Source: Candidatus Parcubacteria bacterium (GTDB lineage Bacteria > Patescibacteriota > Minisyncoccia > Phycocordibacterales > UBA2100). Taken from it: DNA of 43,927 nt. Below, one piece after another: positions 7,461 to 43,927 of the stretch. The notes below the pieces were generated by a model that saw nothing but the letters and a program-made list of their open reading frames with translations, had not been told where the DNA came from and did not search any database. Each line of letters begins with the position of its first letter. The first letter of the stretch is position 1. The position numbers and the translations under genes are program-made. The stretch is from assembly GCA_039798465.1 (NCBI GenBank), contig JBDKGA010000002.1, positions 1 through 43,927 on the forward strand. The letters run 5' to 3'.

Positions 7461-7512
7461 TAGGACACATTTCCGATCTTGATCTCCGTGAGTGCCATGG
7501 GACAATGAGCCC

Positions 7513-8475: not shown

Positions 8476-8479
8476 AAAC

Positions 8480-14275: not shown

Positions 14276-14301
14276 TAGCGCGCGAGTGCGCGCTCTTCTC
14301 C

Positions 14302-27900: not shown

Positions 27901-30900
27901 GCGTTTGATGTTGCGGGTTCGTGGAATATGCTGGGCACCTTTACACACTCTTCGGGTGCAGTGCGATTTACTGCCAGTAGCGGAGGCAACACTATTGCGC
28001 CCGGCACCTTTCCTTTCTATGACGTGGAATTCGCCGGTGCCTCGGGTGGATGGACTATTGCCTCGCATGCGACATCGACCCGAAATACCACACTGACTGC
28101 CGCATCGAGCTTTACACTTTCACCGAATACAGTTCTTGCTGTCGGCGGCACGTTCTCAAATCTTGTTGGTGGTGCAGCCACTACCTGGACCGACAGTATT
28201 CTCTCTCTTACCTCGGGTACTACGTATTCGCTCAATACCAAGAGCGTGAGCGGAGATACGTATGGAACTCTCGCGCTTTCTAATGCGACGAAGTTGAGTA
28301 TGTGGAATTCATCGGCAGCGACCACGACGGTACCCGCGACTTCGTCACTCTATTCACAAGATCATTCGGGAACCGATGGTGCGCTCTATATTTGGGGGGC
28401 TTATACACGTTCGACCGGCTCTGATTATTGGAGTTATGCCACCGACTTTGATGGCACCGATATTTCAGGTACACCACGTGCAGTAGATGTGCGGATTGCG
28501 AGCAGCTCATCTATCACGCTGAGCAGTGGCCTTCTCGATATTATCGGTGCTGCCGGTGCGACAACGACGATTCGCAATCAGGGCAATGGCTTTTATTCGC
28601 TCGCTGTTTCTGGCGGGACGCTCACGGCTGCGTTTTATTCTGTGAGAGATACAGACGCGCAGGGTCTTGCGCTTTCGGGTTCACCAACCATCACCTCGCT
28701 TTCTGACGGTGATTTTGAGCTCTCATACCCCGATGGATCGCTCATTACCACGACTGCAAGTGTTATTACGGCGAACCCGCTCAAGATTATTCAGCGCGTG
28801 CGCTTTGCTACCACGACACCGATTGGTGGATACAACGCACTCACTACCGGCTCGACGGCGAGTTCATGGAAGTTTAATCTACACTACGGCAACTTGGCAG
28901 GAGAAGCGTTCGATAGTGATCCGACAGGGGACCCGGGCTACTTACGCTGGGATGATAGTGCGCTCTCGATTACGGTGGCTGGCCACGTGTATTCCGACGA
29001 AGGCACGAGTGTAAGCAGTGTGTGTGGTACGCCGGCGCAGGTGGTGCGTCTCAAGGTACAAGGTGCTGGCACGTATACCTCGTCGTGTGACGGTGCCGGG
29101 GCCTTTGCTATTGTTGGTGTTACGTTTAACCCCGGCGATACACTCACGCTGTTCCTCGATGGTGTCGCAGCGCGCGCAGCAAATATTTCGGCAGATCCAG
29201 TTTCGAATATTGGCGATATGGATTTGTATGAAAACCGCGTGATTGTTCGCCACGAAGACACGGCACCGCTCACCATCGCCAAAATGGCACAGTATGATTC
29301 TGATCAGGATGCCGACATTCCATTCAATGCGACCGATGCTGCCACGGATACACTGGTGCTACCACCTGATACAAAGCTCATTGTGTGGACAGGTAAAACA
29401 TTTGCTCCTGCGGGCAACATGACACTCAATTCTGGCGGTTCGGGGACAAGCTACGATGGAACGCTTGAGCTCAAAAATAATGCAACTTTCTCGGCAGCAG
29501 GCACGCAGTCGCATAGCATTGGCGGCAGCTTGGTAGTAGGAACGGGTGCCAGTATTGCACCAGCTAGTTCGACGTTTACCTTTACCGCAACCACTACAGG
29601 GAAAACACTCGCCTTTGGTCCCGAAGGCTTGTACAACACCGTGTTTAATGGCGTTGGCGGAAACTGGTCGTTTACTGCAGCGACCGCTACGACCACAAAC
29701 GATTTCACTATTACGAATGGCACCGTGACGATGCCAACAGCCACCACAACAATTGGCGGCTCGTTCTCAAATGCGGGCACCTTTATGCACAACAACGGCA
29801 CGGTGGTATTTTCTTCGAGTGCAACAGGGAAGACTATTCAGTCGGGTGCTTCAGCGTTTTACAACACGACCTTCGACGGGGCCGGTAGCTGGTCGTTTAG
29901 TGGTGCGATAGCAACATCTTCTCGTGACGTGCTCATTTCGCGTGGCTCGGTAACACTGCCATCTTCGCTCTTTGTGATTGGAGGATCATTTATCACCGCA
30001 ACAACCAGTGGCGGATTTTCTGCAGGAACAAATACGGTGAAATTTACTGCTGCCTCAGCGGGCAAATCAATTCAGGTTGCTACATCAACCTTCTACAATC
30101 TCTCATTTGATGGTGTGGGCGGGGAGTGGACATTCCTCGACGCGCGCGCAACCACGACGCGTGATTTTGTCATCGTACATGGCTCAACTACATTGCCGAG
30201 TACTCAGCTTGCAGTTGGCGCTTCGTTTATCAATGCGGATACATTTACGAGTGGTGCCGGTATGGTAAAACTGACCGCGACCACTACCGGTAAGACAGTG
30301 CAAGTAAACGGCTCACCGTTTTACGATGTTCTTTTTGATAGCACTGCCGGCGGGTGGACGCTCACTGATGCTGCCACCTCCACGCACGACACGACGCTCT
30401 CACGCGCGGCCGCGTTTACTGTTTCTTCGGGACAGCGGTTGTCTGTGGGCGGTACGTTTACAAACGCGGTGGGCGGTGCTGCAACGACGTGGGCCGGTAG
30501 TACGCTCTATCTGTATTCGGGGACCAATTACACTGCAAATGCAAAAACAATTTCAGATACGTACGGCACTCTGGCGCTCGGTCCTACAACCCACGTGCGT
30601 CTTTGGAATTCTTCTGCTGCAAGTGTTTCAGTGCCCACAACAGCGTCTCTCTATTCGCAAGACCATGCGGGCGCTGATGGTGCACTTGCGGTGTGGGGAG
30701 ATTACACGCGATCGTCCGGTACCGATTATTGGAGCTATGCGACAGACTTCGACGGCGTTGCGCTCGGGGGTAGCTCACGTCAGGTGCAAGTCACGATTGC
30801 ATCGAGCTCTGTCGTTACCTTCCAATCGGGCGGATCTCTCCAGATGGTGGGCGGCACTGCAGCAACCACGACTGTTGCAAATCAAGGCAGTGGTTTTTAC

Positions 30901-33540
30901 TCGCTTGCTATTACGGGAGGGATACTCAATGCGAGCCGCTACTCATTGCGCAATATGTTTAGCGCCGGTCTCGATATAAGCGGTTCTCCAGTAATTACCT
31001 CATTGAGTAATGGCGATCTCGAGCTCTCGTATCCGGGCGGTTCGCTCATTACGGTCGCGGGCAGTGCGATCGATGCAAACGCGAGCCAAACATTCACTGG
31101 TATGCGCTTTGCAACATCTACCGGTATTACTGGGTACAACGTAACGCGTACGGGAAGTCCGGTGAGTGCCTGGTCGTTCTCAAACTACCACGGCAATTTT
31201 GGCGGGGAAGGCTACGATAGTGACGGGGGAGACGCCTGCGGCTCGATTCGCTGGAGTGATTCCGCGTGTCTCTTTGTAAGTCAGGAACATTTCCGCTGGC
31301 GCAATGATGACGGCGGCGTGGGTGCGCCGGCGGCTGAGTGGTACGACGTGAATTGGTCGAAACGCAAACGCATTACCGTCAATAATCCAAACGTATCAAG
31401 TTATACCAATGTGCCGGTCAAAATTGTCGTTGATTACGACGGTGACATGCGCAGTGATTTCGCCGATTTGCGCTTTACCGATGCCTCGGGCACCACTACG
31501 CTCAGTTTCTGGAGCGAGAAATCCATCACCGCGGCTTCGACGACGGTATGGGTGAAGGTGCCGAGTCTCTTGGGTGCGAGTTCTGCCGTTATCTATGCGT
31601 ACTACGGTAATTCTGGTGCCTCGAGTGTCGAGAGTGGCAGCAATACATTTACCTTCTTCGAAGATTTCGAGGGCGGTAGTCTCGGAAGTTACTCGGGCAA
31701 TACCTCGCTCTTTACCGTGGGAACTACCTTCAATCACAATCATACCTATGGTCTTGATGCGGGGAGCAACTTCGATCAACAAACGACGAATGGTATTTAT
31801 CGCACGGGATCACTCTTCGCGCAGGGAAGCACGATTCGATTCTTCCAGTACGTAGACGCCACCCAAGAAGATGAGCCTTGTACGCTATTTGGCGCGCAAG
31901 CTTCTGGACAAAATTACGCGGTCTGTCTCGATAGGTATCCAAACGACAAGGTCATCATTGCAAAAAATGTTACCTCAAACGATGGAAGTGGTTCTGTGCT
32001 CTCGTCAACCACAGTTACGTACACCACCGGTTGGTACGAAGTGGTTGTTGATTGGCTTTCCTCAAACCTTATCGATGTGAAAGTGTACGACAGTCTTGGT
32101 GCGCTCTTTGCAAATGCGACCACGTCGGATAGTACGTACACCTCTGGCGGAATGGGCTTCTCGTTCTGGTTTATGCACGGCGGTTGGGATTTCTACACCG
32201 CTCGTCCGTATGTCGCGAGTACTCCCACCTACACATTTGGTTTGGAACAAGTATCGGGTGGTGCCTCCTGGCAAGCCGCAGAAGACACTAACATCACTGG
32301 CGTCGTCGTTGGTTCTCTCCAACGTGTTCGCTTCTCGATACAAAATACTGGTGCCACCATTGCAAGTAGGAACTTCAAATTACAGGTTGCTCCTATCGGG
32401 TCTTCGCTCAGCTGCGAAGCAGTACCACATGTGAATTACTCGGACGTGCCCACGGAAACTGCTGGATGTGGTAGTGCTGCCGCGTGTATGACCACTTCTG
32501 CGCAATTTACTGATCAGGCTGCACTTGCCGATTTGCTATCGGTCCCGGCGGGCATGTCGTATGCGACTGGCACCGCGTCGGAAGATCCATCAAACCAAAG
32601 TAGCGCCCTTACCGTAAACAGCAACACCGCAACCGAAGTCGAATACGCGTTTAAATTTACCAATCAGGCTTCGGCGAGTGCCTACTGTTTGCGCTCTACC
32701 GACGGGGGGACGAGCTTCGATAACTACCAGCACGTTGCGCAAGCAACACTGCTCCACGCACCGTTCCTTTCTTCGCTCATGTTCAACAATGATAGCCCCA
32801 TTGCACTTACTGAAGGGGCAACAACGACGGTTTCGGCAACTGCTACAGTCACCGACTACAACGGCTACACCGATATTGCTTTTGCTACGTCCACCTACTT
32901 CCGTTCGGGTGTGGGGAGTATGTGTAGTGCTAGTGACAATAGCTGCTATCGTGTGGCGTCTACTTCGTGTTTATTCTCGAGCTGTTCGGGTAATTCATGT
33001 ACACTCTCGTGCCGCGCGAATATTCAATACATCGCAGACCCGACAGATACCGGTACATACGCCGCAGAAGATTGGCTGGCACAGCTCCGTGTGCAAGATT
33101 CAACGGGACTCTCGGGCGCGGCAACATCGAGCGGAGTCGAATTGCTTACTCTGTACGGTCTCCGCATCGACACGCCCGCGATTGATTTTGGCGATCTTTC
33201 TGCAGGTGCCGATACGGGGTCATTTAACGCCCAGACCACCATGGTAAATACGGGCAACACGCCTATCGGTATACAAGTGGCGGGTACCGATCTCACCGGA
33301 ACTTCGAGCTCGATACCGGTAGGGGAGCAGAAGTATGCGACCTCCACGTTTGCATACGGTAGTTGCAGTATCTGTCAGTTCCTTACCGGTTCGGCAACAA
33401 ACGTAGATATCAGTCTCGCAAAACCAACTTCGACGACTACACCAGTGACTGATGAGCTGTATTGGGGCATCAATGTCCCAACCGGCACACGTGCAACAAC
33501 TCATCAGGGTACTAATACCTTTATTGCTACGTCGCCATAA
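15988..33540 (+). CDS. giant (5850 aa) multidomain cell-surface/adhesin-like protein with DUF2341
   Basis: Single 17.5-kb ORF; N-terminal TM, Pro-rich linker, FN3-like YWWRVRAKD repeats, beta-helix-like repeats, DUF2341-like motif (DFADLRFTD..W..VWVKVP..IYAYYGN). Confidence 0.92.
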   Translation: MKYFMQTRFFLHRKPVTLIVLSILALVLVGWLTRGFVRAYVEVKRAHIFATDVSAVGWEESTHALALDLPADAPYINFSRENSAYIAIGEITEPTPVPAVTTPPEPGEAPEMQPEETPVSEVPVEPTDSAPVETPPTPSETPASDTAPSSPEAPAVPPVEIPAAPAPTDAAPTSLERLELFVEHVTDAILARTATVAFATTSSESTVASSSDEIIASTTPPVSEPSVADASTCAVLGRPCHTIELSGFSVSGSLTDKKFRGAYVNFSFAGLAAEDAFPETKLVVRYYHNGQWRHAGEVFINKELSNAGNGDYFSSKLDEIQVWNDLADVRVMLEYERDAESGPARLYLDAAWIDAEYQERAQDVMLGDAPAPEDAPENVSFAESAEGGDRARSLTVGDGSQLRFVYTGKPEPDSLSMRLDRNVYTPEVGATSTYAYLSITNTTDEVDNFSLIAAFPEGDTVQEIAQFMRNVPQTNIVPVYDDVSYFCAAGWASATSSEAVSAEHICLETGDVRSCATVSDTKENCSVSHVVVASTTETRYVSDWVPLDLSEETSAAVPVPPGYRATKITARTLEILPGQTIYLRALLVPVPGAAARFMLFAAGGLEGDIDSSQLRLEKDWPEVGKSGKRAIKKAELARARLSEQISTRVEFEAGEKPEFRMRFRSQRPILMRLRDTITGRQPEFAVERAVLLRADGSREEVPVDVSFDQNGEWTLKLDEAPRAFRPGRYTMDIALREGESTYTDSLEFYWGVLAVNTDKQPYTPGDTAHLALAALDDEGDTICDAHLALSITAPSGAVAEVPVSPGGNCGHNNVTNIPDYVADYPVIEEGTYRMTLTRLDDAGAVMTSIADTFVVDANSRFSITRSGPTRIYPPSPYTMRMRVHATHAFDGTVREAVPEGFAILDAGGAEIVREVGVVYLVWHLTLGDGESQEVSYMFKAPDVSPYLFRVGAATLIENDVPVFTEPRSWQIASDALAIATGVAWLAGDRTTNSTELNDATTYPFSWNLDSDYDSTYFTHSTTTNSERLTVNVAGDYLVALTLPMERTDTNNRRTRIEAEVRVNGAKQQVGVSRSSYIRNATSHSESSDHLTVLLRNLQAGDYIDVATHAVTTTNVNDDIIVSGRATLYAEYMSSSQTIFSATATTTAAGTDMNPATASKVLWYDDRKDTGYTHNNGSSPENITIASTGYYLVFVNMPLSGSVSDANVRGRVLVNGVVAPGGHFKQGYIENAGGDTTSSLHWSGMVEATTSNSVLSFDVQAEAATGAITVGSDVGSLVIQQLPPADIYVGRATSTVSGGSNWNTAAVTTARWQTDYTMDTASFTHSTTTNPHEITVDKAGDYLAVFNDTRTAAISRTNQIVTLTVNSVDRSGAETKTHYIRNTAGHAESSGGMTFLLRDLAANDVITVTTVQEANAGTVPEDQGAILVLWRKEAQSAYLQHTQRWYVNTNAATTTDPWPAGASDLDEGDSMTTGTSIKSGDVTRLRLALQVNANTAASTDAFKLQYAAGSVCSPALSWSDVGAAGSGSIWRGYDNAGATAGSRISLTNKLLSVSTTTQTYEEQNPSANAPAALFSGESAEWDWVLQNNGAAAGTEYCFRAVSSAGQVLKDYLDYPQVTTNGTPSVPALTKLFDNEKTASTTPWFEFTGSDPNGEDIHYQIQISTDSTFTTTVVDKDSVTDFSLFSNINTPADKAPFNSDETIRFVPGSALSNNTTYWWRVRAKDQNGTNTWSSWSTGRSFTTDTTVIVSTWFQTTQAQFDIDALTNTQTTSTGGGTVELSGLNTSGTIYSPTIDYDDKTIGNSWGSVSWTDTEVGGTLLYQVEYFASTSAWVLVENSQIAGNSTGTTTPPINLTGLDTDTYNQIRVKASFSKTSATPVLSDWTVAWGLSVAVPTLTKLFDNEKTGTTTPSFEFISSDPQSNDLVYQIEWSTDATFATGVTTRTSDTDAGFVNTISGGDTSPFTHNNTIRFTVQNADALSNGTTYWWRVRAKDPLGGNAYSLRSDPRSFTVDTSVTVSTWFQTSTEQFTNTTLNRALASGGGVTASSDTGKIAIYREATAADAITTTTFSHNFDTTVRQDDIYSMTASTSVNLKKGHYVVLYGARFDSTGGTNRSEIQSYLDLAGTALPAGWSQAFIRRTTPANEGLTSGGAIVYASSDSQALSVKTFRTDTNPAATAQRAANTAGLQLIRLDDGWEYIRLSKTGKQTGPTSASWATVTYDRQDELDTTAFAHTTGSGNITLKSPGHYLVFANTYGSLASGSTVETMVKGRLSLGGAEIEGSYSTVYMRGNSNTNGAYQGAVAIGMIIQSTTTNQILSVQLARALGTAAWTINSNQAGTYIDRSAITVVKLPEGDFARAMSTTTPNMNPTALTGFVWNDEAEEDASFSHSTTTNNSRVTTLIAGDYLFLSALHGQGTNIANAYYNQGWRKNGGTLLQYGQGGAYSSNNTTSDIGNWSGNIFPSMINGDYAELVVQAIGTTGTVPADKKGIQGVRISSLSEADPNVPTVESNDIVFTDGSGPKWATVSWATTTPGSTSIKVQVLYATTTGYALVPDAALPGNSTGFTMWPIDISNLNRLTYPILRLRATLTCAGGLCPSLNDWTLKWSAGITISGTAQQFDQTTNVTSGTVAVAVNGVLQVGKTGTISGGTWSIPNVTAFTDDIITVFVSGAADTNEAVAITKYTTSGDITGMKLYERHVTLGSADNPTVTNANIGQYDNSVSGNEDIFYDVDAGNDLTLCSIAGCFDSRLLILADATYRPDSASSGNVTVRHFQNQGTFVADGNTISLSGSWRNSSVFTPGTSSVVFTATSTTETVNSIGASAAAFSTITFGSAASTATWNLSSPLYASSTLSINQGTLAQNGANPILLSSNLTIGTNGTYTKGTATTTFMGSGSSTWTDNSASKQDMGTVLIDGSAKTILMGSNIKATDITIGADDTLNASANRTLEVKGNFTNNNAFVAQSGAVTFTATTAGKIITPGSSSFYDISFNGVGGNWSFNTSALTVSNDFTITTGTVTLPAATSTIGGSFQNVGGTFMHNNGTLLFTTGASKTIRAGGSDFYDVTFNGTGSWNMTDTTATTTRHFTITTGTPTLPSGTLAIGGSFFKNGGSFNPGSGTLRFTAASAQTIKLGGTSAAHMTFAGAGSWSFASGSATTTGTVRFESGSVALPTPAFAIGGSLVSAGGTFSHNNGLVRFVSTATGNTIDPGLSLFYDIEFNSSTGGWTLAGSATSTRHASLVAASAFTLASSKTLEVGGTFSNLVGGASTTWAGSTLYLNSGTSYTINTKSAGGDTYGTLALNDATKVKTWNSSATVTTVPASASLYSQNHAAVNGNLYVWGTYTNTGDEYWAYANDFDGTVLGSPRAVAVRIANNASVSVSSGTWRMLGSAGATTTIDNQGSGSYTLGLSGGTLNAQYYSIRNMGATGFSFSGTPTVSSLSDGDVELAVNGGTIFSIASTVITQNPALQIQRMRVATSTAIGGFNATVTGTPTSYWWFRNHTGNLASENFDSDPGGNPGYVRWDDSGYDISISGHVYADHGVTTVGSPLCDGSTPVVKLVVNRGATYTASCNGSGLFNFPSVTFSGDVTLTAFLDTNGGRRAVTVTRTPTAAISNLDLYENAVVVRHEDVSAISIAQLAWYDSSRDSDVPFTAATSTTDTLTVHPANELFVWSGKTFAPAGNVTLSSGGVGGAYDGRLFIASSGSFIAAGTQSHSIGGGWYVGTSSTFSTASTTITLSATTSSKSLYSAVPLSFHDLTMNGSGGAWSLDSMTAATTTVWHALSVSAGTMTGAGGAVVKTGGITGSGTVSMTGGAVVLEGTAALSNTVPWQFYDLTLGVGSSGALTKSGTATTTVSRTLSVGSGYTLNAGSGPWVLAGAGTPFIVTGTFNADTAPFWYTASSATNVRDTTYAALNLAPSAAGTPTYTILGGTFATNNLTIGGANPVVVNATVNDPAVSVGGTFLVNSGSTFVASNVGAFDVAGSWNMLGTFTHSSGAVRFTASSGGNTIAPGTFPFYDVEFAGASGGWTIASHATSTRNTTLTAASSFTLSPNTVLAVGGTFSNLVGGAATTWTDSILSLTSGTTYSLNTKSVSGDTYGTLALSNATKLSMWNSSAATTTVPATSSLYSQDHSGTDGALYIWGAYTRSTGSDYWSYATDFDGTDISGTPRAVDVRIASSSSITLSSGLLDIIGAAGATTTIRNQGNGFYSLAVSGGTLTAAFYSVRDTDAQGLALSGSPTITSLSDGDFELSYPDGSLITTTASVITANPLKIIQRVRFATTTPIGGYNALTTGSTASSWKFNLHYGNLAGEAFDSDPTGDPGYLRWDDSALSITVAGHVYSDEGTSVSSVCGTPAQVVRLKVQGAGTYTSSCDGAGAFAIVGVTFNPGDTLTLFLDGVAARAANISADPVSNIGDMDLYENRVIVRHEDTAPLTIAKMAQYDSDQDADIPFNATDAATDTLVLPPDTKLIVWTGKTFAPAGNMTLNSGGSGTSYDGTLELKNNATFSAAGTQSHSIGGSLVVGTGASIAPASSTFTFTATTTGKTLAFGPEGLYNTVFNGVGGNWSFTAATATTTNDFTITNGTVTMPTATTTIGGSFSNAGTFMHNNGTVVFSSSATGKTIQSGASAFYNTTFDGAGSWSFSGAIATSSRDVLISRGSVTLPSSLFVIGGSFITATTSGGFSAGTNTVKFTAASAGKSIQVATSTFYNLSFDGVGGEWTFLDARATTTRDFVIVHGSTTLPSTQLAVGASFINADTFTSGAGMVKLTATTTGKTVQVNGSPFYDVLFDSTAGGWTLTDAATSTHDTTLSRAAAFTVSSGQRLSVGGTFTNAVGGAATTWAGSTLYLYSGTNYTANAKTISDTYGTLALGPTTHVRLWNSSAASVSVPTTASLYSQDHAGADGALAVWGDYTRSSGTDYWSYATDFDGVALGGSSRQVQVTIASSSVVTFQSGGSLQMVGGTAATTTVANQGSGFYSLAITGGILNASRYSLRNMFSAGLDISGSPVITSLSNGDLELSYPGGSLITVAGSAIDANASQTFTGMRFATSTGITGYNVTRTGSPVSAWSFSNYHGNFGGEGYDSDGGDACGSIRWSDSACLFVSQEHFRWRNDDGGVGAPAAEWYDVNWSKRKRITVNNPNVSSYTNVPVKIVVDYDGDMRSDFADLRFTDASGTTTLSFWSEKSITAASTTVWVKVPSLLGASSAVIYAYYGNSGASSVESGSNTFTFFEDFEGGSLGSYSGNTSLFTVGTTFNHNHTYGLDAGSNFDQQTTNGIYRTGSLFAQGSTIRFFQYVDATQEDEPCTLFGAQASGQNYAVCLDRYPNDKVIIAKNVTSNDGSGSVLSSTTVTYTTGWYEVVVDWLSSNLIDVKVYDSLGALFANATTSDSTYTSGGMGFSFWFMHGGWDFYTARPYVASTPTYTFGLEQVSGGASWQAAEDTNITGVVVGSLQRVRFSIQNTGATIASRNFKLQVAPIGSSLSCEAVPHVNYSDVPTETAGCGSAAACMTTSAQFTDQAALADLLSVPAGMSYATGTASEDPSNQSSALTVNSNTATEVEYAFKFTNQASASAYCLRSTDGGTSFDNYQHVAQATLLHAPFLSSLMFNNDSPIALTEGATTTVSATATVTDYNGYTDIAFATSTYFRSGVGSMCSASDNSCYRVASTSCLFSSCSGNSCTLSCRANIQYIADPTDTGTYAAEDWLAQLRVQDSTGLSGAATSSGVELLTLYGLRIDTPAIDFGDLSAGADTGSFNAQTTMVNTGNTPIGIQVAGTDLTGTSSSIPVGEQKYATSTFAYGSCSICQFLTGSATNVDISLAKPTSTTTPVTDELYWGINVPTGTRATTHQGTNTFIATSP
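23809..31270 (+). repeat. three tandem intragenic mega-repeats of about 770-920 aa (beta-helix-like)
   Basis: Units begin ITISG/ISISG/ITVAG and end GNLASENFDSD..RWDDS / GNLAGEAFDSD..RWDDS / GNFGGEGYDSD..RWSDS; boundaries approximate. Confidence 0.8.
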
Positions 33541-33576
33541 CACACCACTGCCTGCTTATCATTCATTACCATAGTT

Positions 33577-34230
33577 ATGTCTCGCAAATTAATATCCATC
33601 AGTATTGTGCTCGTGTGTATCGCCCTCGGCTATGTGTGGTATGCCTCGACGCAAGCACTTGCGGCAGACGCTCGCAAATATGCGGATGCCTACAAAGCAC
33701 TTTCGGACGCCGCATTTTTGCCGGGAGCAGCAGCGAATCCTGTGCGCTCTGCCGCCAATCGAGCGCTCGTCGAAGTACTTACCGGCACCTTGTCTCCTGC
33801 AGAACGCATCGAACGAGCGCGTGACGGTCAATCGCTCCTCAAAGATATTGAACTGGAAATAGACGCGATTCCTGATGTGCGCGCCGCTGCAGACAGCGCA
33901 CGCGAACGCTTGGTGGCGCGGCAGTACACCGTGGGCGGCTTGTGGCATGCGAAGCGCCTGCGTGACATTGGAGGACTTGCTGCAGAGCAGGGAGTTCTCG
34001 TTGAGGATATTCGGGGGCTTTCCTATGGTGCGAATTACCACACCGACAAAATATTTTCGCGCGTCATTGCTGACACGGGCGTGCTCGACAGTGCGTTTGT
34101 AGCGACTCTCAATGCCGAGATTCCTCAGGTGGAGGAGCAATTTAACCGCAGATCGAATCTCTATGCCGATTTGCAGCAAGTTGATTACAAAATGGAGACT
34201 CTCCTAGCGAGCTTGGGTGTGCCACGATAA
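33577..34230 (+). CDS. hypothetical protein, N-terminal TM plus helical domain
   Basis: 217-aa ORF co-oriented with the locus, hydrophobic N-terminus. Confidence 0.75.
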   Translation: MSRKLISISIVLVCIALGYVWYASTQALAADARKYADAYKALSDAAFLPGAAANPVRSAANRALVEVLTGTLSPAERIERARDGQSLLKDIELEIDAIPDVRAAADSARERLVARQYTVGGLWHAKRLRDIGGLAAEQGVLVEDIRGLSYGANYHTDKIFSRVIADTGVLDSAFVATLNAEIPQVEEQFNRRSNLYADLQQVDYKMETLLASLGVPR

Positions 34231-34269
34231 AACGATTGCGGCATCGTGCGCGAGAGGTACAATATTCGC

Positions 34270-34566
34270 ATGGAAACATCACGGCGTGTTGGCGGGCTAG
34301 CTCGCTGGGGAGATTATGTGCTCGACGCTGCGCTGCGGCGGCTTGCTCTCATGTGGAGACATGTCGATATATTTGTTGGAGGCACCTTGTTTGCAATCGG
34401 TGTGCTTGGGTTTGAGTCCGGTAAATATTGCGATGGAAATACCGCGGACTATCTTTCGTGTACGCGCCCGGCGGTGTACTACTATTATTCTGCATTCGAT
34501 ATCGTTCTCGTTGTTGTGGGAATATGGTTTATAACAGTCTGGTGTGTGCGCGGTATGCGCGAGTAG
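34270..34566 (+). CDS. small 2-TM protein with a Cys-bounded loop
   Basis: TM-CDGNTADYLSC-TM; TACAAT 6 nt before ATG 34270. Confidence 0.65.
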   Translation: METSRRVGGLARWGDYVLDAALRRLALMWRHVDIFVGGTLFAIGVLGFESGKYCDGNTADYLSCTRPAVYYYYSAFDIVLVVVGIWFITVWCVRGMRE

Positions 34567-34611
34567 GATAACTCAGCTACAGTGCACGCAGGAATGATAG
34601 AATTTGTGTAT

Positions 34612-36048
34612 ATGGCGCGTGCAACAGTGAGCACACGAGTTCTTTTTGCTGTGGCCGCGGGTGCCGCAGTGTTCGCGCTGCGTGTATATGCAGCCGAAAT
34701 AAGTGATGTCACGATAGGGGATGTTACCGATAGTTCTGCTGCGGTAAGCTGGAAGACGGATGTCGAAACAGATGCGACCATCAATTATGGTCTCGATTCT
34801 TCAGTCGGCACCGTGCGCTATCCTCTGTTTGATAAAAAGTCGCATTTGCTCACGATTCAAAATTTGGATCCCGCAACGACCTACCACTTTCGGGTTGTTT
34901 CTACCGATGCACAAGGGAACAAGAGCGCGACTGCGGGGTTTGTGTTTACCACAGCAAATAATCAACAGGCCGTTGCTAACAAAGTTATAAAAGATTTAGA
35001 GAAAGTAACCGACCCCACTGAGCTCACGCGCGTCGTGCAAAAGGTGCAAGAACAAGCGGCCGACGTCATACGACCACCTTCGATTATTGGCAGTCCAAAG
35101 GTGGAGGTAACTTCTGACTCGGCTACTATTTCTTGGAGTTCAGATCGTCCTTCGGGTTCGATGGTTGCCTACGTGGTTGATGCTGACTACCAAGAGGGGG
35201 CATCCGACCCCTATGGTGAGGTGCAGGGAAGTCCCAATGAAGCTGTCACCAAGCATCGCGTCACGATTGAGGGACTCGAGCCCGCGACCATATATCACTT
35301 TCAGGTGTCATCGGCGGATACCGTCGGGCTCACCGGAAAAAGCGAAGACGATACGTTTCGCACCAAATCTGTACTGCCCGATGTAGAGGGGGTGCGCGTA
35401 TCGCGCGTGCAAGAAGATTCGGCAGTGGTGAGCTGGAATACGGGAAGCGTGCTCGCCAAGGGTCGTGTCGAGTACAAAAATATGCGCACCAATGTTGCGC
35501 GCACTATCGGAGATCCGATTCTTACTCCCACACACTCGGTGCAGATTACTGGCCTTGAATTTGGTACTCGCTATACAGCACAAGTCTTTGCCACCAACTC
35601 GGTTGGTGAAGAGGCATCGAGTAAGCCATTTTCTTTTGTGACTATTCGCGACGTGGTTCCACCAGCTATATCAAAGGTAAGTAATGAATCTACGCTGTTC
35701 CCGGGCGAAGACACAAAGGTGCAAACGATTATCTCCTTTGAAACTGATGAGCCCACGCTGTGTCAGGTATCCTACACGCAAGGCTTAGTGATACAAGAAG
35801 GTCCCAACGGCGGAACGGCTTCGATGCCCAAAGAAACAAATCCGCTCACCGACCATACGCAAGTGATTGTGGGCTTTGCTCCCGCTACGGTGTATAAATT
35901 TTGGGTAGATTGCGAAGATGAGACCGGCAACGCCTCGCGCTCCGAAGACTTCGTGCTCATTACGCCAATAAAAGAAAAGAACATCATCGATATTATTCTC
36001 GAGAACTTCCAGGGTACGTTTGGCTGGGTAAACAAAATCGGCAAATAG
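34612..36048 (+). CDS. secreted fibronectin type III (purple-acid-phosphatase-N-like) repeat protein
   Basis: Signal peptide ..VYA; four repeats with SA.VSW...H...I..L.P.T.Y.F.V...D..GN. Confidence 0.85.
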   Translation: MARATVSTRVLFAVAAGAAVFALRVYAAEISDVTIGDVTDSSAAVSWKTDVETDATINYGLDSSVGTVRYPLFDKKSHLLTIQNLDPATTYHFRVVSTDAQGNKSATAGFVFTTANNQQAVANKVIKDLEKVTDPTELTRVVQKVQEQAADVIRPPSIIGSPKVEVTSDSATISWSSDRPSGSMVAYVVDADYQEGASDPYGEVQGSPNEAVTKHRVTIEGLEPATIYHFQVSSADTVGLTGKSEDDTFRTKSVLPDVEGVRVSRVQEDSAVVSWNTGSVLAKGRVEYKNMRTNVARTIGDPILTPTHSVQITGLEFGTRYTAQVFATNSVGEEASSKPFSFVTIRDVVPPAISKVSNESTLFPGEDTKVQTIISFETDEPTLCQVSYTQGLVIQEGPNGGTASMPKETNPLTDHTQVIVGFAPATVYKFWVDCEDETGNASRSEDFVLITPIKEKNIIDIILENFQGTFGWVNKIGK

Positions 36049-36049
36049 T

Positions 36050-37396
36050 ATGGCAAAAACATCCGTACAAGCAGATGACCTCGTGATTACCTACAACAAG
36101 GGGAAGTCTAACGAATTCAACGCACTCTCGCACATCAACGCCGAGATATTTCCGCGCGAGTACATCATCCTCTTTGGGCCCTCTGGCTGCGGAAAATCGA
36201 CACTCCTCTATACGATTCTGGGCGGTAACGTGCCGGACAGTGGCCACATGTATGTAAACGGGGAAGATATCTATGCGTATACACCAGCAGAACTCAATCG
36301 CTACCAGCAGTCGGTGATAGGTATTGTGTACCAGCAGTTCAATCTCATTATGTCGATTTCGGTTCTCGACAACGTGGCTTTGCCGCAGCTCTTTCTCAAC
36401 AAAGCGCCTGCCGAGCGCAATGAACGTGCGCGAGTACTCTTGCGCCGATTCGGTATCCCTGACCGTCTTGAAGATAAGTTGCCGATGATGATGTCGGGTG
36501 GCCAGCAGCAGCGTGTCGCGGTTGCTCGCGCGCTCGTGAACGATCCGGAAATTTTGCTCGCCGACGAGCCGGTGGGTAACCTCGACTCTATTTCGGCGGA
36601 GCACGTTATGGAATCATTTCGTGAGATTAATGAAGGAGATCGCAAGACCGTTGTGCTGGTGACTCACGATGCGAAGTATTTGCCCTACGCGCACCGGGTA
36701 TTTTATATGCGCGATGGTATTTTGCGCCGCATTGCGGTCAACCCCGAAAAGCCACAGATAAAGCGCGTTAAGCCCGGCGAAACCATCGTGACGGAAATTG
36801 AACAGCTGACGCGTATGTATCCGTATGCCGAACCGGTCGAGCTCAAAGTGAAATCAATTGTGAATTTTGCAACACAGACCATAGGCTTTCGTCAGATAGA
36901 GCATCTCGAAAAAGGAATACTCGACGTGTTGAGAGGCTCACTCGACGAATCCATGTTTGCGGCATTTCTCATGAAGCCGCGTCCACATGGCGGGGTAGGG
37001 CTTCACGAAGAGGAAGCTCGCGATATGACGCGGCGCGTATTTTCTCTCATGCGCTATTCGGCAGATGTACAACGATTTCGTGCAGAGATGCATCAAGACG
37101 GTATGTTTATGCACCAGCAGAAGTACGTAGAGCGCGTACTCGAATATTTGAAAGAAGAGGTGGGGCTTACCCCTAGCAAAGACCAGGAAAAGGTACTCAA
37201 GCTTGCTGTCGCAGACCGTATGGGAGGCATTATCACGCGTGATGAATTTGCTGATAAGCTCACTCTTCCGCTTAAGCTCGGTGGACTTGCGTTTACCGAC
37301 GATATTTCATTTTTGATAGCGCGGCATCTCGAAAAGCTTATCGCGCAAGGAGGTTTTCTTATCCAAAGAAACGAACTCGAAGGAGCTCACTCATAA
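36050..37396 (+). CDS. ABC transporter ATP-binding protein (LolD/MacB type) with long C-terminal extension
   Basis: GPSGCGKST, MSGGQQQRVAVARAL, ILLADEP.GNLD, VTHD. Confidence 0.92.
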   Translation: MAKTSVQADDLVITYNKGKSNEFNALSHINAEIFPREYIILFGPSGCGKSTLLYTILGGNVPDSGHMYVNGEDIYAYTPAELNRYQQSVIGIVYQQFNLIMSISVLDNVALPQLFLNKAPAERNERARVLLRRFGIPDRLEDKLPMMMSGGQQQRVAVARALVNDPEILLADEPVGNLDSISAEHVMESFREINEGDRKTVVLVTHDAKYLPYAHRVFYMRDGILRRIAVNPEKPQIKRVKPGETIVTEIEQLTRMYPYAEPVELKVKSIVNFATQTIGFRQIEHLEKGILDVLRGSLDESMFAAFLMKPRPHGGVGLHEEEARDMTRRVFSLMRYSADVQRFRAEMHQDGMFMHQQKYVERVLEYLKEEVGLTPSKDQEKVLKLAVADRMGGIITRDEFADKLTLPLKLGGLAFTDDISFLIARHLEKLIAQGGFLIQRNELEGAHS

Positions 37397-37398
37397 TT

Positions 37399-38607
37399 AT
37401 GCGACTACCCGACATTGCAATGCTCAGTACGCGTATGTTTAAGACGAACCCGTCGCGTACGTGGCTCACGATTTTGGGTATGGGTGTGGGCACGGGGGCA
37501 GTGGTGGCGCTTGTGGGACTTGGGTTTGGTTTGCAGGGAATTATTCTCGAGCGCATCGTCTTTGGCGAGACACTGCTTTCGCTCAACGTCGCAAATCCGC
37601 CGTCTCATGCGGTGGTGCTTGATCCGGCTACTGTTGATGATTTGGCACGCAATGTGCAAGTGAAAGATGTTTCTCCGATGGTGACATTCCCCGCGCTCGT
37701 TACCTACGAAGGGCTAACCGGCAATGCGAATCTCCAAGGACTCAAGCCGTCGTACTTTCTCTATACTGGCGGTAAGGCGGTGGTTGGTGAACTTTTTTCT
37801 GATAAAACCACTGTCGAAGATAGGGACGCGGTTATCATCACCGCGGCACTTCTCAAGCTCTATGGCGTCGAGAATCCTCAGGATGCGCTCGGGAAGACTC
37901 TCAAGTTTCGTGTGTTGGTTCCGCAAGAGGGAAGCGATGCGCAGACCGAAGTGTCTATCGACAAAGAATATCGCATCAAAGGCGTGAGCGCGGACGAGGG
38001 GACACTTGCCGCCATAGTCACGCTTGATGAATTTACCTCTCGATTTTCAGTGCCGTTTTACGAACGCGTTCAGGTGCGCGTGAAAGATAGTAAGAATCTG
38101 GTTCCGGTACAAGATGAGATTATCGCAAAGGGGTTCACCGTGACGGCGCTTTCTAAAACAGTAGAGCAAGCCAACAAAATTTTCCAAGGTATTCAAGCAG
38201 TGCTTGCTGTGTTTGGTGGCATCGCACTCACGGTTTCGGCAATCGGTATGTTCAATACAATGACGGTGACACTTCTTGAGCGCACAGCCGAAATCGGCGT
38301 CATGCGTACTATTGGCGCCTCATCTCTCGATATTGTGGTGTTGTTCGTGGCAGAGGCGGTAATTGTGGGTCTACTAGGTGGGGTAGTAGGTATTCTCCTG
38401 GGGGTGGGGATAGGAGTTGTTGTAAACGGCTTTTTGGGGGCTGTCGCGAGCAAATTTGGCGGGGAGGCAGTGGGTATTTTCCGCTACCCCGCGCCATTCC
38501 TACTCTTTATTGCAACGTTTTCGGGGGCGGTGGGTTTTCTGACTGGCTTGTTCCCGGCCCGCCGCGCAGCAAAAATTAACCCGCTCGACGCCATCCGCTA
38601 CAAGTAG
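37399..38607 (+). CDS. ABC transporter permease (MacB periplasmic core plus FtsX domain)
   Basis: RTWLTILGMGVG, NTMTVTLLERTAEIGVMRTIGA, PARRAAKINPLDAIRY. Confidence 0.93.
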   Translation: MRLPDIAMLSTRMFKTNPSRTWLTILGMGVGTGAVVALVGLGFGLQGIILERIVFGETLLSLNVANPPSHAVVLDPATVDDLARNVQVKDVSPMVTFPALVTYEGLTGNANLQGLKPSYFLYTGGKAVVGELFSDKTTVEDRDAVIITAALLKLYGVENPQDALGKTLKFRVLVPQEGSDAQTEVSIDKEYRIKGVSADEGTLAAIVTLDEFTSRFSVPFYERVQVRVKDSKNLVPVQDEIIAKGFTVTALSKTVEQANKIFQGIQAVLAVFGGIALTVSAIGMFNTMTVTLLERTAEIGVMRTIGASSLDIVVLFVAEAVIVGLLGGVVGILLGVGIGVVVNGFLGAVASKFGGEAVGIFRYPAPFLLFIATFSGAVGFLTGLFPARRAAKINPLDAIRYK

Positions 38608-38634
38608 CTTCTTGAGGCTTTGTATACAGCGTGG

Positions 38635-38643
38635 TTATCCACA
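38635..38643 (+). promoter_or_regulatory. perfect DnaA-box consensus
   Basis: TTATCCACA in the intergenic gap, about 30 nt upstream of the -10 element TACTAT (38673-38678). Confidence 0.5.
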
Positions 38644-38684
38644 TTTAGCGCCAAAAAATGGCCATTCGGTGGTACTATTCGCCT

Positions 38685-40571
38685 ATGTATAGCGTGGGTG
38701 ATTTCCGTCATATCGTAAAGCGCACACGCGGCTCTATAGAGAGACTTTTTGCGGATGTAGATACTCGCGCGGGTAAGGTGACACTGGTCACCGTACTTGG
38801 AGGAGCGGTGTTTCTTGCTGTTTTTTCGTTTGCGTCGTTCGAATTTCGGGTTCCTACTGTTAGTGCGGATGATGTCACTACGTCGGTGCGCGTACTGAAC
38901 ACACCGCCAGTCTGGACAATAGATGCGCAGGAAGAATACGAATCATCCATCACTATTCCGACTAACGTTGGCACTAGTAGTCAATGGATTGCTACGGGCA
39001 CCGACTCAAACGGAGAAGATTACTACCTCTTGATTTGCAAGACAGGTAGTGCGCCAACTCCTCACTCAAACGCAGTGCCGACCTGCAACGGCGGTATCTC
39101 AAATACCTGGGCAACGTCTGCGGCCACACCAAGTGGCACCCAGGCCCGTGCTTCAACGACCACTCTCGAAGCATTTCCTGAATCAAACGCCTGGTTTGCG
39201 TGGGTTTGCGATGGCAACGGCTCGCTCGCTCAATGCAACGCAACGAGCAAGCAGGGGACAGGAAGCACCGCTTCGCCGTTTATCGTAAATCATCCGCCTG
39301 TGTTCAACAGTATTGCAAACAACGGGCCCGTGAACCCTGGTGCTGTCATTACCTGGACTAGTAATGCGATAGATACCGATACACTTACCACAAACACAAC
39401 GCGCCTTCTGGTATGTAAGGCCGCAGATTTTTCTGCAGTCACCGGCGCCTGTGGAGTGGGTGGTACATGGGCTACCAGCACCCTGCAAGCTTCCAATCCT
39501 GCAACATCAACAACAATATCGATTCCCTACCAGGACAAAACATACAACGCTTACGTATATGTGGTAGACGCGTTTGGTTTAGGCGCCACCTCAACACGCC
39601 AGTCAAGCAACTCTACCTTTGCGGTAAACAATATCGCTCCCACACTCAACGCGGCGACTATCAGCCTTGTTGATCCTCGCACAAGCGGTAACCTCACGCT
39701 CTTTAATCCCGCTGCAACGTCTGGTCCTTTCTACGTGCAATTTCAAGTCAACGATGACAACAGCTGCCAAAACTCACTGAGCACGAACGAAATAGCTTCT
39801 TCTATAGCAAACATATACCGTTCGGGAGTTACTCAGGCTTCGTGTCAGCTCAATACCGACTACAACTCCAATAGTTGCTACCCAGCCGCCTCTGTAAATA
39901 GCAGCATCACCTGCACACAAGACGTCGCGTCGTGTTCTGGTCCGACTGACAGTACCGCCACCTGGACCTGTAGCTTCCCGCTCTGGTACAACGCTGACCC
40001 GACCGATGCAAGTACACCCTGGACTGCAGAAAATTGGCTCGCATCGGTGCGTGTGACAGACGACAATGGCCTCACGAGCACGCTTACCGAGGGCTCTACC
40101 GGCAATGAAGTAGTAAGTTTCTTGGCGTTTGATGTGCCGCAGGCAAGTGTGTACTTTGGTGCTTTGCAGCCGGGCGATCAAACCGATCCGCTCGCGACTA
40201 CCACGAGCATGCTCGCGCAAGGCAATATTGGCCTCGACCAGGATATATACGGCGATACCATGTGTACCACTTGGACCTCTCCCGACTCCTGTGATTCAAA
40301 CGGCATTAGTGTCACCAACGACATCACCATCGCAAATCAAAAAGTTGCGACCTCCTCTGTTGCCTATGCATCAGCTGCCGCGTTTACACTCTCTGGCTCA
40401 ACGACCCCCACATCATTCTCGATAAACATTCCCAAGACTACCGCGACTTCGGCACCGCAGCAGAAAGACACCTACTGGGGTATCAACATTCCGGGAACAC
40501 TTACGGTAGCGGGTGATTATCGCGGACAGGACACCATTACTGCTAAAAAGAGCGCGATAGCATTCTGGTAG
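38685..40571 (+). CDS. secreted Cys/Thr-rich Ig-like protein sharing its C-terminal module with the giant protein
   Basis: N-terminal TM/signal; ADPTD..AENWLA and YWGINIP motifs also in the giant protein; start set by TG-G-TACTAT 6 nt before ATG 38685 (ORF track gives 38658). Confidence 0.8.
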   Translation: MYSVGDFRHIVKRTRGSIERLFADVDTRAGKVTLVTVLGGAVFLAVFSFASFEFRVPTVSADDVTTSVRVLNTPPVWTIDAQEEYESSITIPTNVGTSSQWIATGTDSNGEDYYLLICKTGSAPTPHSNAVPTCNGGISNTWATSAATPSGTQARASTTTLEAFPESNAWFAWVCDGNGSLAQCNATSKQGTGSTASPFIVNHPPVFNSIANNGPVNPGAVITWTSNAIDTDTLTTNTTRLLVCKAADFSAVTGACGVGGTWATSTLQASNPATSTTISIPYQDKTYNAYVYVVDAFGLGATSTRQSSNSTFAVNNIAPTLNAATISLVDPRTSGNLTLFNPAATSGPFYVQFQVNDDNSCQNSLSTNEIASSIANIYRSGVTQASCQLNTDYNSNSCYPAASVNSSITCTQDVASCSGPTDSTATWTCSFPLWYNADPTDASTPWTAENWLASVRVTDDNGLTSTLTEGSTGNEVVSFLAFDVPQASVYFGALQPGDQTDPLATTTSMLAQGNIGLDQDIYGDTMCTTWTSPDSCDSNGISVTNDITIANQKVATSSVAYASAAAFTLSGSTTPTSFSINIPKTTATSAPQQKDTYWGINIPGTLTVAGDYRGQDTITAKKSAIAFW

Positions 40572-40612
40572 TCCTGGCCGTGCTCGTGCATCGCGCTCGA
40601 GCGCTCATCTCT

Positions 40613-41629
40613 ATGAACTACCAGCGCGTTACAACTGAAACAAAGCAAAACAGACACAGGTTTGCGGGCTTTTTTCGCGCTGCGTATTTTGTGTTGTTTG
40701 GTGTTGTATTTTTTGCTAACGCTGGTGTGGCGCATGCCGGATTTGGTATCACGCCGCCGTATGTAACAAACGACAGGCTCACGAGGGGGACTACCTTTGA
40801 GCAGCGTATTACGTTGGTACGCTCGGATCCGGTCGATGATTTGAAAGTGCAAATCACCAAGAATATTCCCGGCATCGAGTCGTGGTTTGAAATAGATAGA
40901 GGGAATGAGTTCATAATGCCAAAAGGCACTACACAAATGCCCATTGTGGTTACGGTGCATGTGCCCCAGGATGCGGAATACAAAGTGTATACCGGTGCTA
41001 TACGTATACGCACCTCTTCGGCGGATGTGTCTTCGGGTGGAGGTGTCTCTATCGCGCTTGGTGCGCAGATAGATGTGTCCCTCACGGTGGTTGATAAGAT
41101 ATACGATTTCAACGTTCGCCGCATTCGGCTTATCGACTTGGAAGAAGGGTTCAGAAAGTGGAGCTTGTTCTTCCCGGGCAAGATTCGTTTTTTCATGACG
41201 ATAGAAAATACGGGTAACACCGAATTTGGCCCCACAAAAGTACAGATGGATATTTATGATATCGACAAGGCAACATTGCTCGAAAGTATCGCCAACACAA
41301 ACAAGATAGATACGATTGCACCTTTTGCGATAAAGGAAGTGTTGGCAGAACTCCCTACGCGCGTGCCGGCCGGTCGCTACATTGCTAAGTACACAATCTT
41401 TAAGAACAATGACATTGCGCAGCAAAATGAAGTAAATCTCAGTATTTCTGCTCTCGGCGCAGTGCCAGGGTATGAGGGATATGGTTTTGATGGACTCAAT
41501 CTTGCCGACAAGATAAAGGTCGCACTGGTGATTGCGCTTCCGCTGATAGCACTCATTCTGGTTATTGTTGGGCTGGTTATGCGTCGTCGCAGGATGAGAG
41601 CGTCCTATGGAACAGTCGCGCAACAATAG
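40613..41629 (+). CDS. DUF916/DUF3324 (WxL-interacting)-like two-Ig-domain membrane-anchored protein
   Basis: Signal ending AHA; FGITPP..., IENTGNT..., GRYIAKYTI; C-terminal TM followed by RRRR. Confidence 0.65.
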   Translation: MNYQRVTTETKQNRHRFAGFFRAAYFVLFGVVFFANAGVAHAGFGITPPYVTNDRLTRGTTFEQRITLVRSDPVDDLKVQITKNIPGIESWFEIDRGNEFIMPKGTTQMPIVVTVHVPQDAEYKVYTGAIRIRTSSADVSSGGGVSIALGAQIDVSLTVVDKIYDFNVRRIRLIDLEEGFRKWSLFFPGKIRFFMTIENTGNTEFGPTKVQMDIYDIDKATLLESIANTNKIDTIAPFAIKEVLAELPTRVPAGRYIAKYTIFKNNDIAQQNEVNLSISALGAVPGYEGYGFDGLNLADKIKVALVIALPLIALILVIVGLVMRRRRMRASYGTVAQQ

Positions 41630-42785: not shown

Positions 42786-42817
42786 TCCCTCACTATTTAT
42801 CAGCTATACTTATGGGT

Positions 42818-43741: not shown

Positions 43742-43744
43742 TCT

Positions 43745-43927
43745 ATGAGGGCATATGCGACGATGATAGTGGCACTTGGTATGCCTTTTGTTGCGCACGC
43801 AGAAGTGGCGCTCTTCTTTTCTCCTGCGCAAGGCTCGTATGAAGTAGGGAAGGCGTTTGAACTTTCGGTGCGAGCAGATGCCTCGGGGCATTTGGTAAAT
43901 GCGGCTGAGGGTGAGATACAATTCGAT
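43745..43927 (+). CDS. third cohesin-domain protein (partial, runs off the window)
   Basis: Manual translation MRAYATMIVALGMPFVAHA-EVALFFSPAQGSYEVGKAFELSVRADASGHLVNAAEGEIQFD matches the N-termini of the other two cohesins; not in the ORF track. Confidence 0.75.
   Translation, partial: MRAYATMIVALGMPFVAHAEVALFFSPAQGSYEVGKAFELSVRADASGHLVNAAEGEIQFD

Follow-up and report, generated by a model that had tools for sequence, protein, structure and literature searches.

Usher-less pili built by donor-strand exchange are known from two systems described in 2026. In the Elr pilus of Enterococcus faecalis, WxL proteins were found by cryo-electron microscopy to polymerise by donor-strand exchange, a DUF916/DUF3324 protein being the membrane chaperone; the model has an acceptor-only tip and a donor-only LPxTG terminator, and in a survey of RefSeq proteomes the system was reported from no phylum other than Bacillota (Sleutel et al., bioRxiv 10.64898/2026.10.17.759780; all that is said of Elr here follows the accessible part of the preprint). 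The Pam pili of Ca. Mycosynbacter amalyticus, a member of the candidate phyla radiation (CPR), have been solved and use the same chemistry, with membrane chaperones and a donor-only, membrane-anchored terminator; they were reported mainly in Saccharimonadia and Microgenomatia (Troman et al., PMC13278184; likewise from the accessible part of the article). Here we describe a locus in a Candidatus Parcubacteria bacterium with a genome of 706 kb (GCA_039798465.1, contig JBDKGA010000002.1, positions 1 to 43,927 of the forward strand; this whole stretch of 43,927 nucleotides is referred to as the window), in which a giant and a medium-sized secreted protein end in the same module and are followed by a membrane-anchored partner, a dockerin protein and cohesin-like proteins. 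We consider it likely that these genes encode a chaperone-assembled, usher-less donor-strand-exchange pilus, with the module as socket, the medium protein of 628 residues as shaft, the giant of 5,850 residues as tip, the partner as membrane chaperone and the dockerin protein as a terminator held by cohesins. The features on which this reading rests are the following.

15988..33540, plus strand: giant secreted protein, 5,850 residues, a single open frame with DUF2341 and Ig/TNF-like matches; proposed tip adhesin, acceptor only
32758..33537, plus strand: shared module of the giant; D1 (about 32758-33135) a complete Cys-rich Ig-like sandwich, D2 (about 33136-33537) apparently without its last strand
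38685..40571, plus strand: medium protein, 628 residues (637 from 38658), with signal, donor-like strand, N1, N2, D1 and D2; proposed shaft pilin
38874..38897, plus strand: spare N-terminal amphipathic strand of the medium protein, residues 73-80 of the 637-residue frame; proposed donor strand
39630..40568, plus strand: shared module of the medium protein; D1 about 39630-40106, D2 about 40107-40568
40512..40544, plus strand: last strand of D2 in the medium protein, residues 619-629; it aligns with the WxL last strand and is proposed to border the acceptor groove
40613..41629 (longest frame from 40580), plus strand: partner, with signal, two beta-sandwich domains and a C-terminal membrane helix; proposed chaperone
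41607..42785, plus strand: dockerin protein, 392 residues, with signal, donor-like strand (41745-41768), Cys-rich repeats, Ig domains and dockerin (about 42636-42764); proposed terminator

The longest frame of the medium gene starts at 38658; close relatives in the databases have 628 residues, which fits a start at 38685.

The locus resembles Elr in its putative N-terminal donor strand, in a C-terminal acceptor domain that appears to lack its last strand, in candidate tips with variable payloads and the acceptor at the C-terminus, in a two-domain putative chaperone with a C-terminal membrane helix, in a donor-only candidate terminator and in rare proteins with the module ahead of the payload. 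It differs from Elr in that the window proteins match none of PF13731, PF06030 and PF11797, and in that the acceptor comprises about 135-155 residues and lies behind the Cys-rich D1 in the relatives examined. The proposed shaft subunit has four domains here and one in Elr, and the proposed tip comprises 5,850 residues; the donor pattern is V/A-x-T/S-x-V/I-x-V/I here and S/T-x-G/A-x-V/I-x-F in Elr; the terminator would end in a dockerin instead of LPxTG, and Elr is reported to be confined to Bacillota. Membership of the WxL/Elr family was rejected on the gathering scores of Pfam PF13731 and of PF06030 together with PF11797, and on the lack of LPxTG; the trait of that family found here is a two-domain partner of WxLIP/PapD fold with a C-terminal membrane helix within 10 kb (WxLIP, WxL-interacting protein). 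With Pam the locus has in common the CPR host, multi-domain, disulfide-bearing candidate pilins, a C-terminal Ig domain that appears truncated, a membrane-anchored PapD-like putative chaperone, the absence of an usher and a donor-only candidate terminator. In Pam, however, the donor is an internal linker between two domains, whereas here it would be the mature N-terminus, ahead of N1; the Pam tip is a single small domain, and PamR anchors by its own membrane helix. The distinction from Pam is made by description. NCBIfam gave no match, the structure searches brought up no entry for Pam, and the accessible text of PMC13278184 makes no mention of 'dockerin', 'cohesin', 'WxL' or 'Paceibacteria'. 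As in chaperone-usher pili, domain 1 of the partner superposes on FimC, SfaE, Caf1M and PapD; unlike in these, no usher gene occurs among the locus neighbours, the putative chaperone is tethered to the membrane and the partner has no PapD_N match in Pfam. Membership of the chaperone-usher class was rejected on the missing usher and the membrane helix. Cohesin-dockerin anchoring is known from cellulosomes; unlike in cellulosomes, no enzyme cargo is seen and the dockerin protein carries a donor-like strand.

The strand-exchange chemistry is known, but the module family is not described in the open-access literature searched, nor was a cohesin-dockerin pair found there as a pilus anchor. It might be speculated, and we do so tentatively, that Elr/WxL and Pam are joined here by a third usher-less family of strand-exchange pili, in which a four-domain shaft hoists an adhesin of 5,000-7,600 residues, any module-ended protein can be swapped in as tip and an end made of donor strand and dockerin plugs into membrane cohesins; if true, this would explain how Patescibacteria display giant proteins. 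The pilus proposed here would extend membrane-chaperone strand-exchange pili beyond the two systems above, with a cohesin-dockerin anchor, and would bear on how host-dependent Patescibacteria grip their hosts and keep giant proteins that have neither a membrane nor a wall anchor. It also provides a list of parts with testable roles, and a module of 260 residues by which any payload could be attached to a fibre would be of practical use for display.

The shared C-terminal module

The module starts at 32758 in the giant and at 39630 in the medium protein, and the genome has no further copy. The C-terminus of the giant shares 83 of 253 residues (33%) with the medium protein (BLASTP E 7e-20), a value that excludes chance similarity. 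A preliminary description of this DNA had listed motifs common to both proteins, all of which are present where they had been reported, and had regarded the N-terminal parts as unrelated, in agreement, at the sensitivity of the method, with a profile of the N-terminal part of the medium protein that matches only this protein genome-wide. Relatives of the module were sought among 1.84 billion cluster representatives, which yielded 1,314 proteins at E<=0.001, and the best 150 of these were analysed. In 148 of the 150 the module ends no more than 20 residues from the C-terminus, the position that had been anticipated for it, and the idea of a random internal domain was rejected on this ground. 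Of the two exceptions, one continues into a Kelch region and the other has the module first, followed by DUF2341/LamG; among the same 150, eight relatives have other domains inserted in the second half of the module and one is a partial duplicate. The module is a single terminal copy, and an S-layer or wall-binding repeat was therefore rejected. Its carriers range from stand-alone proteins of about 280 residues up to 7,622 residues, and their payloads are unrelated, comprising DUF2341/LamG, RCC1 repeats, PKD and Listeria-Bacteroides repeats ahead of the module. LamG, DUF2341 or propellers lie inside D2, and not before the module, in P0044, P0051, P0053, P0054, P0055, P0057, P0084 and P0125; a spare strand also stands at the start of some of these D2-insertion proteins, which could be incorporated along a shaft.

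The distribution of the module is patchy: in the phylum it occurs in 16 of 401 and in 14 of 301 genomes, and in the order in 7 of 151. One tally across the phylum includes genome G154, which is flagged as unpublished and on which no claim depends by itself. Those relatives of the medium gene that bear a name belong to Patescibacteria records, several of them labelled Paceibacteria or Adlerbacteria. The nearest Atlas clusters are unnamed, and some of their members are archaeal, so the module may extend into archaea; the named Atlas neighbours (WxL 0.77-0.78, SCPU 0.78) are leads only. In the sequence searches no Pfam, NCBIfam or PDB sequence family covers the module. A weak match to the GH123 N-terminal domain in 11 of 48 reflects the last two strands, and a metagenome scan with the stand-alone protein P0149 gave no match. 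A divergent cluster in genome G213 (L087:6664-10914) encodes a 761-residue protein with a weak D2 match and a similarly ending 170-residue protein, together with a 202-residue protein, a dockerin protein and a cohesin, possibly representing a further subfamily.

Structural modeling of the giant's module by AlphaFold2 (predicted local distance difference test, pLDDT, 96) gave two beta-sandwiches, D1 (residues 1-131) and D2 (130-260). D1 matches generic Ig folds (Z 8-9), which also dominate the fold searches with the two-domain model. The top listed matches of D2 are the CEP192 ASH/PapD-like domain 6fvi (Z 8.5, root-mean-square deviation (rmsd) 2.6, 99 residues aligned) and a GH123 domain (Z 8.4). 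While the complete domain 1 of the partner covers residues 1675-1797 of 6fvi, D2 covers 1671-1777, and because its alignment stops at 1777 instead of 1797, it would be about one strand short. Judged from the ends of these alignment ranges, D2 appears in the predicted model to be a sandwich without its last strand, and the range aligned with WxL likewise fits a missing strand. A D2 profile of 142 sequences aligned end-to-end with a profile of 33 Patescibacteria WxL-like proteins, 21 of which match PF13731 (123 columns, hhalign 93%, E 2.7e-7); nine control domains reached at most 33% and 56 columns. D2 is WxL-like, probably as a remote relative and not as a member of WxL. It has no detectable relation to the second pilin-like family, encoded on contig C34 (hhalign 1.5%).

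A spare N-terminal strand and its covariation with D2

Nine residues lie between the signal peptide and the first domain of the medium protein. Its N1 and N2 are homologous (hhalign 98%), and N1, N2 and D1 each begin at an N-x-x-P turn behind the last strand of the preceding domain, start positions which imply that the first strand of the protein belongs to no domain. A donor pattern of the form V/A/I/L-x-T/S-x-V/I/L/M-x-V/I/L was found directly behind the signal peptide in 36 of 37 medium proteins (3.8 expected from shuffles), 18 of 25 dockerin proteins (2.8) and 3 of 72 large carriers (4.3), and was at chance level in FN3 (1/18, 2.0 expected), cohesin (6/56, 5.3) and partner proteins (0/35, 2.7). 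It is present in 119 of 120 medium homologs that were fetched later; its Thr is invariant in the dockerin proteins, and the giant of the window has no donor motif after its signal. A weight matrix made from the medium donors proved too narrow and was set aside (at 8 bits it finds 8/25 dockerin and 1/14 module-first proteins). By this distribution the medium protein would be donor and acceptor, the giant acceptor only and the dockerin protein donor only.

Covariation was calculated as mutual information with average product correction (MI-APC) from 141 medium sequences (effective number 111) without gaps at the columns concerned. The even registers i+j 696-702, all on the last strand of D2, are the top four of 538 antiparallel registers and, reciprocally, the best partner of that last strand is the spare strand (rank 1/529). 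Rank 1 was retained in all 14 subsamples drawn and under three weightings. Of 124 other 8-mers only one favours the last strand of D2, and plausible neighbours were recovered for four of seven control strands. The covarying pairs (V73/I627 to A/F; V77/I611 to I or L/V; R78 with D620) make physical sense. Strongest covariation of the spare strand with the module's last strand is what donor-strand exchange predicts, and it lends indirect support to an antiparallel pairing of the two; the measure is blind to whether the contact lies within or between chains. In 24 paired loci, the dockerin strand begins with A/S/T in all six that have Phe627 in the pocket of the medium protein and with V/I/L in all 18 others. 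A complex prediction of the medium module with residues 45-89 of the dockerin protein scored 0.12 against a mark of 0.32, which gave no answer and was used neither way.

The membrane-anchored partner

The model of the partner's ectodomain (pLDDT 91) consists of two sandwiches, in which a disordered loop (99-103) precedes a long strand (107-117) that closes domain 1. A loop followed by a long strand is the layout of the F1-G1 loop and the G1 donor strand in pilus chaperones. Over both domains the partner matches the E. faecium WxLIP 9i1y (Z 12.2, 220 residues aligned, rmsd 15.3 owing to a different hinge), and domain 1 matches FimC, SfaE, Caf1M and PapD with Z 10-12 and rmsd 2.5-3.3 (FimC Z 11.6-12.0, rmsd 2.5). 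N-x-G-N is invariant in the homologs, the C-terminal hydrophobic helix is followed by a basic tail, and a later membrane helix is present in 32/32 complete homologs. The modelled sandwiches, the invariant motif and the helix agree with the two Ig-like domains, the NTGN and the C-terminal membrane helix that had been noted for this neighbour. Its designation as DUF916-like holds by fold, which is of the WxLIP/PapD type, but not by family: the window partner matches neither PF06030 nor PF11797, and across 34 homologs PF11797 was found in 2 (best E 1.3e-4), PF06030 not being among the families listed, 25 of 32. This fold supports the WxL/csc analogy; for the partner itself, the role of a chaperone is more plausible than that of a passive anchor.

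Linkage of the module to a DUF916-like partner, also proposed earlier, is close: the partner lies within 300 nucleotides of 33/34 medium genes and within 10 kb of 60/72 module genes. Module genes without a nearby partner are mostly extra copies in partner-bearing genomes or stand at contig ends; in G353, a stand-alone module has no partner within 18 kb. Among 301 genomes, the module was found in 13 (E<=1e-20), the partner in 12 (E<=1e-18) and both in 11, while the module alone occurred in 2, both cut by contig ends, and a weak partner alone in 1. In one group of genomes (L051, L055, L057, L059, L063 and L064), which have 2-5 module genes and no adjoining dockerin gene, the partner ends in an SH3 domain.

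Dockerin, cohesins and a proposed anchor

The cohesin and cohesin-like genes of the window are the following.

42773..43741, plus strand: cohesin-like protein with a C-terminal membrane helix, 32% identical (E 5e-17) to the cohesin at 14272; proposed membrane anchor
43745..43927, plus strand: start of a further cohesin-like gene with a cohesin profile match, interrupted by the contig end and continued on contig C34
14272..15771, plus strand: cohesin protein with a membrane helix (PF00963, 35.5 bits, over the cut-off), directly upstream of the giant gene

The span given for the system in the preliminary description accordingly has to be widened to the dockerin and cohesin genes at 41607-43927 and 14272-15771. 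The reverse complement of contig C34 overlaps the window end by 121 exact bases. The window dockerin protein scores 22.7 bits with Dockerin_1 (cut-off 22.9), and its homolog in L066 reaches 24.8 bits; it has two EF-hand-like loops, its gene adjoins membrane-anchored cohesins, and it carries no module. The cohesin-like protein at 42773..43741 has no Pfam cohesin match of its own. Of 32 loci with room, 22 have a dockerin gene directly behind that of the partner, and cohesin-like genes come next; 42 of 56 cohesin-like proteins have a membrane helix. A later membrane helix was found in none of 35 medium and 22 dockerin homologs, and no LPxTG occurs in the last 60 residues of any operon protein class. 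The giant has an N-terminal hydrophobic stretch which, by eye, ends A-x-A-like in homologs; as this signal looks cleavable, the giant needs an anchor elsewhere. In one lineage (L054), a downstream protein combines a donor-like start with its own membrane helix, again by eye. An apparent chaperone-dockerin fusion in L097 was rejected as an artefact of a run of N.

The genome also encodes a sortase over the Pfam cut-off (contig C6:8187-8906 region, L102). On the opposite strand of contig C34 (17261-17986), a 241-residue protein with a cohesin-like domain and a dockerin-like C-terminal end, kept in related loci, is a possible adaptor scaffoldin.

Proposed assembly and alternatives

The terminal module, the gene order, the fold and helix of the partner, the distribution of the spare strand and the dockerin and cohesin domains are read directly from the data. 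Elr and Pam suggest by analogy what these parts may do, namely chaperone action, polymerisation, the order of tip and terminator, dockerin-cohesin anchoring and adhesive function. All parts would be exported via signal peptides (from the sequence, with cleavage judged by eye). D2, apparently one strand short by the predicted model and by its remote homology to WxL, would present a groove beside its C-terminal strand, and the partner, as its fold and the examples of ElrE and PamC suggest, may fill this groove with the long strand that follows its flexible loop. The medium protein would polymerise as the shaft; the giant, with a socket and without a spare strand, could occupy only the first position, at the tip, and the dockerin protein, with a spare strand and without a socket, only the last. 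The dockerin would then bind the neighbouring membrane cohesins, where ElrB has a sortase anchor and PamR a membrane helix. The likely purpose would be to hold a very large adhesin away from the cell for capture of a host or surface. The view of the module as a polymerisation domain and the assignment of the smaller protein to the shaft and of the giant to the tip, both raised in the preliminary description, are strengthened by the terminal position of the module, its linkage, the fold of the partner and the covarying donor-like strand.

A number of observations weigh against this assembly. With other alignments the match of D2 to WxL falls to 24% (E 8e-4), and to 14% with a shallower profile; none of 67 D2 sequences matches PF13731 at E<=0.5, and the genome has no match either. 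In the structural comparison with WxL and CS1 pilins that had been suggested earlier, CfaE-CfaB and CfaB-CfaB fusions occur among the Foldseek matches of the module; for the two-domain model, the 50 best wide structural matches include no WxL or pilin chain. The donor pattern was devised after viewing the sequences, and in its strict form it occurs in only 4 of 14 module-first proteins. The registers that lead by MI-APC rank 5, 14 and 30 with an inverse-covariance method; when donors were swapped among the ten nearest relatives, ranks 1-10 were kept, with scores of 0.49-0.76 versus 1.03. On the tree each covarying pair amounts to 2-3 shared branches; of five tree tests, for which residue classes were picked after looking, four gave a place in the top 0-2.5% of comparable columns and one showed nothing. 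The six Phe627 loci represent about two lineages, and giants carry Phe at the pocket even where the medium donor begins with Val, as in the window. Chaperone matches of the partner's domain 1 are tied with those of non-chaperone ASH/MSP domains, and the co-occurrence profiles are partly circular, having been built from the same loci, with 20 loci fetched as close relatives. Finally, the dockerin gene is not next to the partner in 10 of 32 loci with room, indicating that this anchor is not universal.

It might be argued that the module is a display tag for sorting or docking, which binds one-to-one to the membrane partner without any fibre, the partner having the anchor role suggested for WxLIP ahead of the work on the Elr pilus, and that dockerin and cohesin form a separate scaffold. 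A single partner gene does serve up to 5-6 module genes per genome, some module-first proteins are without a clear spare strand, and WxLIP has been proposed to bind and stabilise WxL (Hassan et al., PMC10599100, as far as the accessible part of the article goes). We nevertheless regard mere docking as unlikely, since it leaves unexplained both why the spare strand is confined to the medium and dockerin proteins and why it covaries with the last strand of D2. Strand exchange might also be real but yield a short stalk, in which one copy of the medium protein joins the giant to the dockerin protein, or a self-closed monomer with its strand inserted into its own D2. Contacts within and between chains would leave the same covariation, and with four domains and 60 kDa the subunits are large ones for a shaft; the Pam pilins, of 39-55 kDa, polymerise, however (PMC13278184, accessible part). 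Moreover, a lone linker gives no reason for the donor to covary with the groove of its own family, and self-closure would have to span four tandem domains, so that either outcome seems improbable to us.

Another possibility is a pilus without a dockerin terminator, in which the chaperone stays as base anchor, helped in some lineages by an SH3 tail, and the strand of the dockerin protein serves its own fold or some other partner. The ten loci without an adjoining dockerin gene would fit such an arrangement, as would the Pfam SH3_3 domain in which the partners at these loci end (4/4 tested) and the sortase of the genome. Against it, the strand of the dockerin protein persists where a different domain lies behind it (L068, L097), its first residue varies with the pocket residue of the medium protein in 24/24 loci, and the operon proteins have no LPxTG; we consider this arrangement very unlikely. 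The pilus with a dockerin terminator is the reading that we prefer.

Neighbouring genes and other pilus-like clusters

Between the giant and medium genes lie the following features.

33577..38607, plus strand: accessory block, with a 217-residue helical protein and a 106-residue membrane protein, then the three genes below
34582-36048, plus strand: FN3 protein
36050-37396, plus strand: ABC ATPase
37399-38607, plus strand: MacB-type permease

Accessory proteins occupy this position in many Paceibacteria loci. The 106-residue membrane protein has two helices and a conserved Cys pair, and the MacB-type transporter has a long C-terminal extension. Of 31 loci with room, 20 have the permease upstream of the partner, which makes it common but not core; the ABC/MacB block was rejected as a core component because it is missing in the other 11. 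Elsewhere in the window (7492-10016), a Dam-like adenine methylase, a 270-residue protein of no known kind and a second methylase, in a region of lower GC content (46%), look by eye like an acquired restriction-modification cassette.

A second pilus-like cluster is located about 10-18 kb downstream, on the reverse strand of contig C34 (1-8112). It encodes three DUF916-like membrane proteins, one of them over the PF06030 cut-off, a pilin-like protein of 385 residues and two domains, for which at least 1,699 homologs exist, and a 440-residue relative. A truncated member of the dockerin family is encoded there as well, and its N-terminal domain shares 33% identity with that of the 385-residue protein. 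Its layout resembles Pam by the description in the accessible part of PMC13278184. At the Pfam level, WxL clusters occur in Patescibacteria as well: PF06030 is over the cut-off in 93 of 401 genomes and PF13731 in 10 of 401, often side by side and with small and large WxL-ended genes (e.g. L076, L100, L101, L103-L110). These clusters bear on the confinement of the system to Bacillota as stated in the accessible part of the preprint, whose rule additionally needs PF11797, outside this tally (bioRxiv 10.64898/2026.10.17.759780). A 1,775-residue tail-fibre-like protein, encoded on contig C34 (10567-16384) behind a small helix-turn-helix membrane protein, adjoins the locus in many relatives.

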